From Escherichia coli (lineage in GTDB: Bacteria > Pseudomonadota > Gammaproteobacteria > Enterobacterales > Enterobacteriaceae): 64,000 nucleotides of DNA. Positions 28,233 through 30,570 of the stretch are shown here, one piece after another (the first letter of the stretch is position 1; the number at the start of each line of letters is the position of its first letter). The position numbers and the translations under genes are program-made. The stretch is taken from NCBI RefSeq assembly GCF_024502345.1, contig NZ_JALDNN010000001.1. The stretch is one strand, 5' to 3'. The notes under the pieces were generated by a model. The model ran no database searches and was not told the DNA's origin. It was given only the letters and a program-made list of their open reading frames with translations.

Positions 28233-28295
28233 TGCAAAGCGCCTCCGCCGAGAAGGTTAGCTTCTGCATTCACCCCAAAGTTCACTTTGGTTATT

Positions 28296-28310
28296 GCGCT
28301 TTGTCAGCGC
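28296..28310 (-). promoter_or_regulatory. Putative nutL boxB hairpin (GCGCUGACAAAGCGC on the leftward transcript)
   Basis: Perfect 5 bp stem with GACAA loop about 75 nt downstream of the pL start; resembles P22-type boxB, not lambda boxB. Confidence 0.4.
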
Positions 28311-28378
28311 CGTAGATTCATATTTGAATCGTTGTATATTCACCGCCCTGGTGAGTAGTGCGTCCTGCTGATGTGTTT

Positions 28379-28441
28379 AGTATCACCGCCAGTGGTATTT
28401 ATGTCAACACCGCTAGAGATAATTCATCACCGCAGATGGTT
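28379..28441 (-). promoter_or_regulatory. Lambda-type pL promoter with OL1, OL2, OL3 operators
   Basis: OL1 TATCACCGCCAGTGGTA (28381-28397) identical to lambda; OL2 (28405-28421) and OL3 (28425-28441) each differ from lambda at one position; -35 TTGACA and -10 GATACT on the minus strand. Confidence 0.8.
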
Positions 28442-28627
28442 ATCTGTATGTTTTTTATATGAATTTATTTTTTGCAGTGGTGCATTGTTTGGTAGGTGAG
28501 AGATCTGAACTGCTATGTTTAGTGAGTTGTATCTATTTATTTTCAAATAGATACAATTGGTTATGTGTTCTTGGGTGAGGGGGATCGTGAGGCAAAGAAA
28601 ACCCGGCTCTGTGGCCGGGAATAACAT

Positions 28628-29006
28628 TTAGGAATCAAGGTCAGGTAGCATGATTTTCTCAATCAACGTCAATGCCCTTTGGTCTCGTTCAGCAAAATAT
28701 TTAGGAGCGTACTGAGGCAGCCACACTTCGTTGAAGTATTGTTTGAAATCTGCAATATTCGTTTGGGTATAGACGTACCGGGAATGTCCGGCCATCTGGG
28801 TACTCATGGTTATATGTTGGGAATGTCTTCGGCTCAACCCCCCGGTTGTCACGGAGCCATTGCGAGAAAACCCTACCCTCTGAAATATCAGGGACCATTT
28901 TTTCTGGCAGCGTATATCCGGCCTGTTCAAGTGGCGCAACCAAGTTAAACGTCAGTTCATTAAGCATAGAAAAGTGCGTATGAGGAACTCTGCCTCGGTT
29001 TGTCAT
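28628..29006 (-). pseudogene. Two overlapping ORFs in different frames downstream of the KilA-N ORF; possible frameshifted C-terminal part of an antirepressor-like gene
   Basis: ORFs 28701-29006 and 28628-28939 overlap out of frame and directly follow the KilA-N ORF. Confidence 0.3.
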
Positions 29007-29045
29007 ATACCGCTTAAGGTGGATAGGGAGTTCGGCAGGCGCTCT

Positions 29046-29387
29046 TTAACCTGACATCCACTCACGCACCCATCTCGATACTTGCACTGCAAATTTTGGA
29101 GATAGCCACTGAGCTAAATTAATTGCGATGTCTGGATGAACCCAAGTCCCTTGATTCTCTGCTCTTCCGCCTTTAAATGATTGAATTAACTCCGATATGG
29201 GAATCCCCATATCGCGTGATAATTCATCAAAAAAATCTTGTGTTGTTTTTAGTCGTGTATAGTCAGCAAGTAGCTTCCCCGCAGACTTGCACATCGCGGT
29301 GGCATTGATGTATCCGTCTTTGGTGCGAAGATGGATGACTTCTCCATCAACTTCTCTAGCGATTAATGCAAGTTGAAATTGTGTCAT
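29046..29387 (-). CDS. KilA-N domain protein
   Basis: 113 aa ORF with KilA-N-like N-terminal domain; immediately downstream of cI. Confidence 0.55.
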   Translation of the reverse strand: MTQFQLALIAREVDGEVIHLRTKDGYINATAMCKSAGKLLADYTRLKTTQDFFDELSRDMGIPISELIQSFKGGRAENQGTWVHPDIAINLAQWLSPKFAVQVSRWVREWMSG

Positions 29388-29418
29388 AAATCATCCTATT
29401 ACGTGAAAAATAAAACAA

Positions 29419-30132
29419 TCACCCAAACGTCTCTTCTGGCCACTGGCTGGCGATAACTTTCCCCACAACGGAACAACTCTCATTGCATGGGATCATTGGA
29501 TATTGCGGGTTTAGTGGTTGTAGAAACACCTGACCGCTATCCCTGATTAGTTTCTTGAAGGTAAACTCATCACCTCCAAGTCTGGCTATGCAGAAATCAC
29601 CTGGCTCAACAGCCTGCTCAGGGTCAACCAGAATTAACATTCCGTCAGGAAAGCTTGGCTTGTAGCCTGTTGGTGCGGTCATGGAATTACCTTCAACCTC
29701 AAGCCAGAATGCAGAATCACTGGCTTTTTTGGTTGTGCTTACCCATTTCTCCGCATCGCCTTTGGTAAAGGTTCTAAGCTCAGGCGAGAACATCCCGGCT
29801 TGAACATGAGAAAAAACAGGGTACTCATACTCACTTCTAAGTGACGGCTGCATACTAACCGCTTCATACATCTCGTAGATTTCTCTGGCGATTGAAGGGC
29901 TAAATTCTTCAACGCTAACGTTGAGAATTTTTGCAAGCAATGCGGCGTTATAAGCATTTAATGCATTGATGCCATTAAATAAAGCACCAACACCTGACTG
30001 CCCCATCCCCATCTTGTCTGCGACAGATTCCTGGGATAAGCCAAGCTCATTTTTCTTTTTTTCATAAATAGCTTTAAGGCGACGTGCGTCCTCAAGCTGC
30101 TCTTGTGTTAACGGTTTCTTTTTTGCGCTCAT
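29419..30132 (-). CDS. cI: Lambda-type CI repressor (S24 peptidase / LexA-like)
   Basis: 237 aa ORF, about 98% identical to lambda CI as recalled (4 substitutions); HTH plus Ala-Gly cleavage site and Ser/Lys dyad region. Confidence 0.9.
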
Positions 30133-30142
30133 GCATTAAATC

Positions 30143-30207
30143 TATCACCGCAAGGGATAAACTTCTAACACCGTGCGTGTTGACTATTTTACCTCTAGCG
30201 GTGATAA
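30143..30207. promoter_or_regulatory. Lambda-type OR3-OR2-OR1 operators with PR and PRM
   Basis: OR3 (30143-30159) and OR2 (30165-30181) identical to lambda; OR1 TACCTCTAGCGGTGATA (30189-30205) has one G-to-A change; PR -35 TTGACT and -10 GATAAT. Confidence 0.85.
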
Positions 30208-30232
30208 TGGTTGCCTGTACTAAGGAGGTTGT

Positions 30233-30433
30233 ATGGAACAACGCATAACCCTGAAAGATTATGCAATACGCTTTGGGCAAACCAAGACGGCTAAAGATCT
30301 CGGCGTATATCAAAGCGCGATTAACAAGGCCATTCATGCAGGCCGAAAGATTTTTTTAACTATAAACGCTGATGGAAGCGTTTATGCGGAAGAAATAAAG
30401 CCCTTCCCAAGTAACAAAAAAACAACTGCATAA
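30233..30433 (+). CDS. cro: Lambda-type Cro repressor
   Basis: 66 aa [69 protein letters not shown], near-identical to lambda Cro. Confidence 0.9.
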
Positions 30434-30440
30434 GTAACAC

Positions 30441-30486
30441 CGCTCTTTTCACAATGGACATTCGTCCTACGTCGCTGACAAAGCGA
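30441..30486 (+). promoter_or_regulatory. Putative nutR (boxA-like CGCTCTTTT and boxB-like hairpin TCGCTGACAAAGCGA)
   Basis: Position immediately downstream of cro; boxB-like stem-loop with GACAA loop at 30472-30486; spacer longer than in lambda. Confidence 0.4.
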
Positions 30487-30570
30487 GCCCCAAGATATCT
30501 GACCAACTAAGGCCATATGCGTTTCCACGCATACCTTTCAACTAACTATTCACTATTGGAAAATTAACAA

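Follow-up and report, generated by a model that had tools for sequence, protein, structure and literature searches.

The N proteins of phages lambda, P22 and 21 are each specific for their own nut sites. Judging from the records of HK97 (AF069529) and mEp234 (EF120460, from a survey of wild phages with lambda immunity) and from the likeness of their N to P22 gp24, lambda immunity combined with a P22-like nut/N specificity is a known and common mosaic. Here we describe a module of this kind in a 64,000-nt stretch of Escherichia coli DNA (RefSeq assembly GCF_024502345.1, contig NZ_JALDNN010000001.1), hereafter the window. The module lies in an 11.4-kb defective prophage at argW and is very probably an HK97-like lambda-immunity early-control region whose nut sites are intact but were orphaned by deletion of the antiterminator gene N. 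Nothing here is new in kind, as the system is already known.

The early-control region and its closest relatives

Megablast identifies window positions 28271-31151 as an HK97-class early-control region. The segments from pL to nutL and from cro through nutR to cII are near-identical to those of HK97 and mEp234, and HK97, mEp234 and HK106 essentially share with the window pL, the operators, both boxB elements, the nutR boxA, cro and the start of cII. In these phages the leader identity extends 41 nt past boxB, and the match to HK97 carries on, at the other side, across gp53 into O, of which it covers the first 35 codons. The phages carry a 127-aa N about 140-170 nt after boxB, together with full replication and late genes, whereas the window has no N and its leader is the variant found in the E. 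coli prophages of E272 and 1008S19. The elements of the control region are as follows.

28379-28407, minus strand: promoter pL, TTGACA-17-GATACT, with the transcript start at about 28372 (promoter scan)
30180-30208, plus strand: promoter pR, TTGACT-17-GATAAT (promoter scan)
28381-28441: operators OL1, OL2 and OL3, with 0, 1 and 1 mismatch to lambda
30143-30206: operators OR3, OR2 and OR1, with 0, 0 and 1 mismatch to lambda
29419-30132, minus strand: cI repressor, 237 aa, full length, lambda immunity (sequence comparison)
30233-30433, plus strand: cro (sequence comparison)
30571-30867, plus strand: cII (PF05269, Pfam)
30900-31061, plus strand: HK97 gp53 homologue, 53 aa (phrog_1331; HK97 comparison, PHROGs)

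The architecture, operators and promoters are those of lambda, as are cI and cro (95% DNA identity). This agrees with a first-pass annotation of the DNA, which had described pL and pR as lambda-type: both are recovered by the promoter scan and all six operators show 0-1 mismatch to lambda. The same annotation had called the boxB hairpins P22-type and unlike those of lambda, and our comparison sustains the former for nutL and also the contrast with lambda. Lambda boxB reads GCCCUGAAGAAGGGC at nutL and GCCCUGAAAAAGGGC at nutR, with a GAAGA or GAAAA loop in contrast to the GACAA loop of the window, and lambda N has another arginine-rich motif. The annotated nutL of P22 contains the same 15-mer boxB as the window nutL, and the annotated P22 nutR also has GACAA, although the closest match overall is to the HK97/mEp234 class. 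P22 differs in its own immunity (the c2 repressor and its own operators), in the stem of nutR and in having good boxA elements (GCTCTTTA), whereas the window combines lambda operators with a weak nutL boxA.

The nutL and nutR hairpins

28296-28310, minus strand: nutL boxB, GCGCUGACAAAGCGC, which reads GCGCTGACAAAGCGC on the minus strand from 28310 to 28296 (mEp234/HK97 alignment, folding, P22 comparison)
30472-30486, plus strand: nutR boxB, UCGCUGACAAAGCGA, which reads TCGCTGACAAAGCGA on the plus strand from 30472 to 30486 (mEp234/HK97 alignment, folding)
28354-28362, minus strand: putative nutL boxA, CGCACTACT, a poor fit to the boxA consensus (labeled 'putative' in the mEp234 GenBank annotation)
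30440-30448, plus strand: nutR boxA, CGCTCTTTT, 23 nt upstream of boxB (mEp234 annotation, alignment)

In alignments with HK97 and mEp234, every base of both boxB elements and of the nutR boxA is unchanged. The mEp234 record labels these sequences 'putative nutL boxB/boxA' and 'nutR boxA/boxB', and the hairpin sequences are thus, on the strength of that annotation, already known as nut sites. On the pL transcript, boxB spans +63 to +77, ahead of the first gene; on the pR transcript, it lies between cro and cII, 39 nt past the cro stop codon. Both 15-mers fold into a 5-bp stem carrying a GACAA loop, at the places where the first-pass annotation had put a stem-loop on each early transcript.

That annotation had also proposed comparing the folds with shuffled controls. 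The outcome is clear for nutL (-8.5 kcal/mol, z -3.5), since none of 200 shuffles is equally stable, and only marginal for nutR (-6.4 kcal/mol, z -2.2), which 7 of 200 shuffles equal. The nutR energy is moderately convincing alone, and the case for this hairpin is strengthened by (i) the 11-mer core GCTGACAAAGC, which occurs exactly twice in the 64 kb, at the two nut sites, (ii) a single compensatory change between the nutL and nutR stems, from G-C to U-A at the outermost pair, and (iii) the match to P22. By structure, position and sequence identity, we assign both sites to the lambdoid nut family and to the P22/HK97 class of boxB.

N in HK97-class phages and E. coli prophages

The mEp234 N lies downstream of nutL, and HK97 encodes its 'N anti-termination protein' in the same place. 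HK97 N starts with MTRRTQFKGNSRSRRRERLKAKA, as does the N open reading frame (ORF) of 1008S19 and E272. The N of this class contains an arginine-rich motif, GNSRSRRRERLK, related to the P22 gp24 motif GNAKTRRHERRR: when the HK97 and gp24 sequences are anchored on GN, a 12-residue core shows 6 identical and 3 conservative positions. In addition to this core (GN..RR.ER), the two proteins share a C-terminal LP.VALYAAG.RKSKQ.TAR, and their C-termini are 67% identical. The E. coli prophage N of the 1008S19/E272 type matches PHROG 271, 'anti-termination protein N-like' (E 9.5e-39), and an intact module of N, leader and nutL is present in at least 414 of 5,426 complete E. coli genomes.

5564-5947 of locus L002 (minus strand), 4768-4836 of locus L009 and 1064-1447 of locus L010: N annotation
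About 5945-6013 of locus L002 (minus strand), about 1445-1512 of locus L010 (minus strand) and, as a remnant, 28221-28232 of the window: upstream ORF (uORF) of the N leader

In 1008S19 and LZYWN_4, RefSeq annotates just the 23 C-terminal codons of the HK97-type N, as 'antitermination protein, incomplete, missing N-terminus'. The full 127-aa N ORF of 1008S19 is present and intact despite this partial label, and the E272 copy is annotated correctly. A missing N annotation in a prophage is therefore no evidence that N is absent, as it may be an artefact.

The N leader of the E272/1008S19 type contains a 22-codon uORF, MITLPELVARLYSPPKFTRRSI, which has a GGAGG ribosome-binding site and a stop codon overlapping the N start (ATGA). 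This arrangement may reflect translational coupling or a conserved leader RNA. By eye, the different leader of HK97 also has a uORF, which stops at this same TGA with PPKFIRRSI as its last residues; TPPKLTDRRI occurs in the 133-aa form of lambda N given by an older annotation.

The left deletion junction and the chimeric DUF551 ORF

28221-28222: left deletion junction with a 2-nt TA microhomology, N and most of the pL operon being removed (comparison with relatives)
28223-28295, minus strand: N-leader remnant with the GGAGG ribosome-binding site and the ATG of the leader uORF (1008S19/E272 comparison)
27939-28232, minus strand: chimeric ORF of 4 uORF codons, about 19 codons of the recT-upstream module and a complete DUF551 domain (domain search, alignments)
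27858-27909, minus strand: two tandem terminator-like hairpins directly after the DUF551 ORF (terminator scan)
27494-27838, minus strand: 114-aa phage ORF with no known function (phrog_1229, PHROGs)
27409-27424, minus strand: intrinsic-terminator-like hairpin and T run, between the 114-aa ORF and torI (terminator scan)
27158-27358, minus strand: torI excisionase (recombination directionality factor), 66 aa (full-length match to PDB 1Z4H, Tor inhibition protein, E 6.6e-43)

The 1008S19 and E272 prophages share the window leader from pL through boxB up to GGAGGCGCTTTGCAATGATTACGCTA, which ends at 28221. Past this point they run through a short leader into the 127-aa N ORF, whereas the window diverges and reads AGCGAAATGCTTCGCTCATATAAACCAG before entering the DUF551 domain. 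Strain LZYWN_4 has the stretch beginning AGCGAAATGCTTCGCTCATATAAACCAG well inside the pL operon, as an internal portion of a hypothetical gene that immediately precedes recT. At 28221-28222 the two parental homologies share 2 nt (TA), the hallmark of an illegitimate deletion. Of the two possibilities that the first-pass annotation had offered, nut sites orphaned by deletion of N or nut sites used by another factor, the leader comparison thus supports the former.

The first ORF after pL had been recognized as a DUF551 protein, and it indeed carries the complete domain (PF04448, E 2.4e-18). Our comparison refines it to a deletion chimera, whose ribosome-binding site, ATG and first four codons (MITL) derive from the 22-codon leader uORF. 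The phage cdtI DUF551 homologue has 206 aa, and the window ORF covers its C-terminal part only, from about residue 109. In ordinary prophages, DUF551 genes and the xis-proximal hypothetical gene are found far downstream in the pL operon. The left junction is absent from the 5,426 complete E. coli genomes, and a 30-mer spanning it has 0 matches in 100,044 GTDB representative genomes; the right junction of the prophage, described below, is likewise absent from the complete E. coli genomes. The deletion therefore looks strain-specific, as expected for a decay product of this strain.

Search for an antiterminator in the window

Tblastn searches (E up to 100, word size 2) with the N proteins of HK97, mEp234, E. 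coli 1008S19, P22 and lambda detected no N or gp24 homologue in the 64 kb, the best of the matches listed having an E value of 1.7 (20 bits). No arginine-rich 12-mer is present in any of the six frames between 26600 and 31085, and the matches from 31086 on are off-frame of real genes or inside an insertion sequence (IS) element. Both results bear out the first-pass annotation, which had reported the antiterminator gene as missing and had suggested a search for small arginine-rich ORFs. No Rfam family matches the region, and the small ORFs have no match in NCBIfam. All ORFs of the control region and of the pL operon recur in relatives that encode N, such as HK97, E272 or 1008S19, which argues against the other suggestion, use of the nut sites by a different factor.

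An Rfam match to Leu_leader (E 0.96), on the strand opposite to the tandem terminator-like hairpins, was dismissed as noise. The gp53 homologue, the only basic peptide nearby (N-terminus TKRRKKYQEK), was considered as a substitute for N and rejected, given that HK97 has both gp53 and N.

Proposed history of the module and alternative explanations

We propose that N was the first gene after nutL in an intact ancestor, where it would have bound the GACAA-loop boxB on the pL and pR transcripts as they were made and, together with the Nus factors of the host, would have allowed RNA polymerase to read through terminators. An illegitimate deletion that ran from the N leader, 74 nt past boxB, into a distal gene of the pL operon would then have removed N and everything down to the DUF551 gene. 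The surviving module would comprise OL/pL/nutL, cI, OR/pR, cro, nutR and cII, its nut sites intact but orphaned because N was lost through the mapped junction. With CI bound, pL and pR would be off. Upon inactivation of CI, pL transcripts would carry nutL without N, the chimeric DUF551 ORF would be translated and transcription would stop at the tandem hairpins (27909-27858), with a third hairpin (27424-27409) preceding torI, the last gene that leftward transcription reaches. The pR transcripts would carry nutR and be subject to termination before or within cII, and the nut sites could work only with a matching N supplied in trans. Termination upstream of torI reportedly keeps the KplE1 prophage of E. 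coli K-12 in place; if so, loss of N would similarly help to lock the remnant in the chromosome. Since N was removed by a mapped deletion, the data point to ordinary prophage decay with no new regulatory system. Independent signs of decay are the fusion of O to an ejection-protein gene, the IS-split tailspike gene and the mere 11.4 kb between the att cores, all described below.

Several observations weigh against this account. Binding of these boxB elements by HK97 N is predicted from synteny and from the 6 identical and 3 conservative of 12 core positions, and the nutR hairpin is just marginally above shuffles in stability (z -2.2). The nutL boxA is unconvincing, its best match to the boxA consensus CGCTCTTTA having 3 mismatches; this leader stretch is essentially the same in HK97 and mEp234, and the boxA of HK97 is weak too. 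A trans-acting N may be encoded in the host genome beyond the 64-kb window. Finally, the nut sites equal those of HK97, so that the deletion may be recent and the retention of the sites says nothing on selection.

In an alternative that shares the deletion of N, the orphan nut sites would still serve in trans: once the SOS response has inactivated CI, an N of HK97/P22 specificity, supplied by a phage that is co-resident or superinfects, would load at nutL and nutR. Leftward transcription would read through the three terminators and reach torI, rightward transcription would extend into cII and the fusion gene, and this would tie the remnant's expression or excision to a helper phage. By established lambda genetics, any transcript with a nut site is open to the action of N in trans. 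The remnant has both nut sites, pL, pR, cI, the att cores, intS and torI in intact form, terminator-like hairpins do lie between pL and torI, and the cognate N type is common, as judged from the at least 414 E. coli genomes with an intact module. However, tblastn listed no N among its matches in the window, the other complete E. coli genomes and the GTDB representatives lack the configuration, nothing points to selection for it, and recent decay explains the nut identity to HK97 equally well; use in trans is accordingly unlikely. Intactness of the repressor switch, the nut and att sites, IntS and TorI also makes a helper-dependent element conceivable, in which only the HK97/P22-type N of an induced co-resident phage would drive pL read-through of the three terminators, torI expression and excision. 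We regard this version as quite improbable; were it true, the orphan nut sites would be a sensor of a specific helper phage's antiterminator.

It is highly improbable that a factor encoded by the island, so far unrecognized, replaces N at the GACAA hairpins. The absence of N is what would call for such a factor, and the 114-aa ORF (phrog_1229) and the 53-aa gp53 homologue, both of no known function, would be the available candidates. Yet all frames between 26600 and 31085 lack an arginine-rich stretch, HK97 carries N as well as gp53, the DUF551 and xis-proximal genes lie far down the pL operon in ordinary prophages, and the junction is demonstrably a deletion scar. As to whether the hairpins are chance inverted repeats and no nut sites at all, the short nutR stem and the 7 of 200 shuffles that fold as well might suggest so, but both hairpins stand at canonical positions, are identical to annotated HK97-class nut sites (and, for the nutL boxB, to P22), differ from each other by a compensatory pair change and contain an 11-mer core found in the 64 kb at these two sites only. 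The probability left to chance repeats is vanishingly small, the homology results having already refuted them.

Deletion of N from an HK97-like module thus illustrates that, as a prophage decays, regulatory RNA sites can persist in seemingly intact form after the protein they serve has gone, and an orphan nut site should be read first as a deletion scar. Beyond annotation, the significance of the finding is slight.

The remainder of the defective prophage

27069-27084, minus strand: attR core, CTGCAGGGGACACCAG, with 1 mismatch to the 16-nt KplE1 core (15/16)
38479-38494, minus strand: attL core, an exact 16-mer, within the 3'-terminal part of the tRNA-Arg(CCU) gene argW (38480-38554)
37161-38354, minus strand: IntS-type tyrosine integrase, adjoining argW and reading away from the tRNA (profile and sequence searches)
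31048-32193, plus strand: in-frame fusion of a truncated O to a P22-type DNA-ejection protein, with the right deletion junction at 31149-31151 (PHROGs, Pfam)
34601-34996 and 33762-34643, minus strand: orfA and orfB of an IS3-family element (ORF/domain search)

The remnant resembles KplE1 (CPS-53) of E. coli K-12 in its argW site, 16-nt att core, IntS at attL, TorI at attR and size (a remnant of about 10 kb). KplE1 has wholly lost its repressor module (PMC2951348), whereas in the window cI, cro, cII, pL, pR and the nut sites remain and N has been lost. The sequence of the 16-nt core was taken from the KplE1 study (PMC2951348); the two core matches, 11.4 kb apart, compare with a chance expectation of 0.04. 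An inversion of the island had been considered because the integrase and the excisionase-like gene lie at opposite ends; this is the normal layout of the KplE1/HK620/Sf6/CUS-3 module (PMC2951348), and inversion is ruled out. These sequence features place the element, integrated at argW, among the defective prophages with a recombination module of the KplE1/HK620/Sf6 type.

At the right junction, HK97 identity spans gp53 and codons 1-35 of O and ends at 31151, and homology to the ejection protein begins at 31149, leaving 3 nt of microhomology. In PHROGs, the 381-aa fusion ORF is O-like at residues 1-36 and matches the ejection protein at residues 34-375; the match to Pfam Inj_translocase sets in at position 87 of the profile, and the ejection part lacks about the first 97 residues of its family profile. 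The joining of O to an ejection-protein gene implies that the replication, nin, Q, lysis and head genes are gone. Both junctions are clean cases of illegitimate deletion at 2-3 nt of microhomology, each creating a chimeric ORF by in-frame fusion.

The IS3-family element, of about 1.3 kb (33.77-35.08 kb), splits a P22-type tailspike gene (33486-37026), whose head-binding domain is broken into Pfam profile positions 1-48 and 51-113. Between the ejection fusion and the tailspike, positions 32194-33497 encode an SLT-domain lytic transglycosylase of 151 aa, a 173-aa ORF on the opposite strand (phrog_6067) with no known function, possibly a lipoprotein as judged by eye, and a 99-aa ribbon-helix-helix repressor of the Arc/Mnt type. 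This interval resembles the immI-like region of a P22-type phage.

28602-28619, minus strand: terminator-like hairpin at the Timm position (terminator scan, mEp234 record)
28628-29387, minus strand: genes at the rex position, a KilA-N ORF and BstA C-terminal fragments spread over three frames (domain searches)

The KilA-N ORF at the rex position has 113 aa, and two ORFs in other frames match the PADLOC BstA profile at positions 160-226 and 236-272, so that from the domain matches these genes look like a split abortive-infection defence gene of the BstA type. E272 carries a single intact 301-aa BstA-type gene at this position. 1008S19 is 99.7% identical to the window over 28628-29387, where RefSeq annotates the KilA-N gene alone.

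Directly outside attR (22747-26629), ORFs resembling invertase, fructokinase and sucrose permease recall cscA, cscK and cscB by eye, and the argW region of this strain is a hot spot holding both a csc-like cluster and a KplE1-site prophage. Also outside the prophage, past yfdC and the gene after it, the minus strand has at 40823-42043 an Asn/Asp-rich ORF of 406 aa that contains internal repeats.

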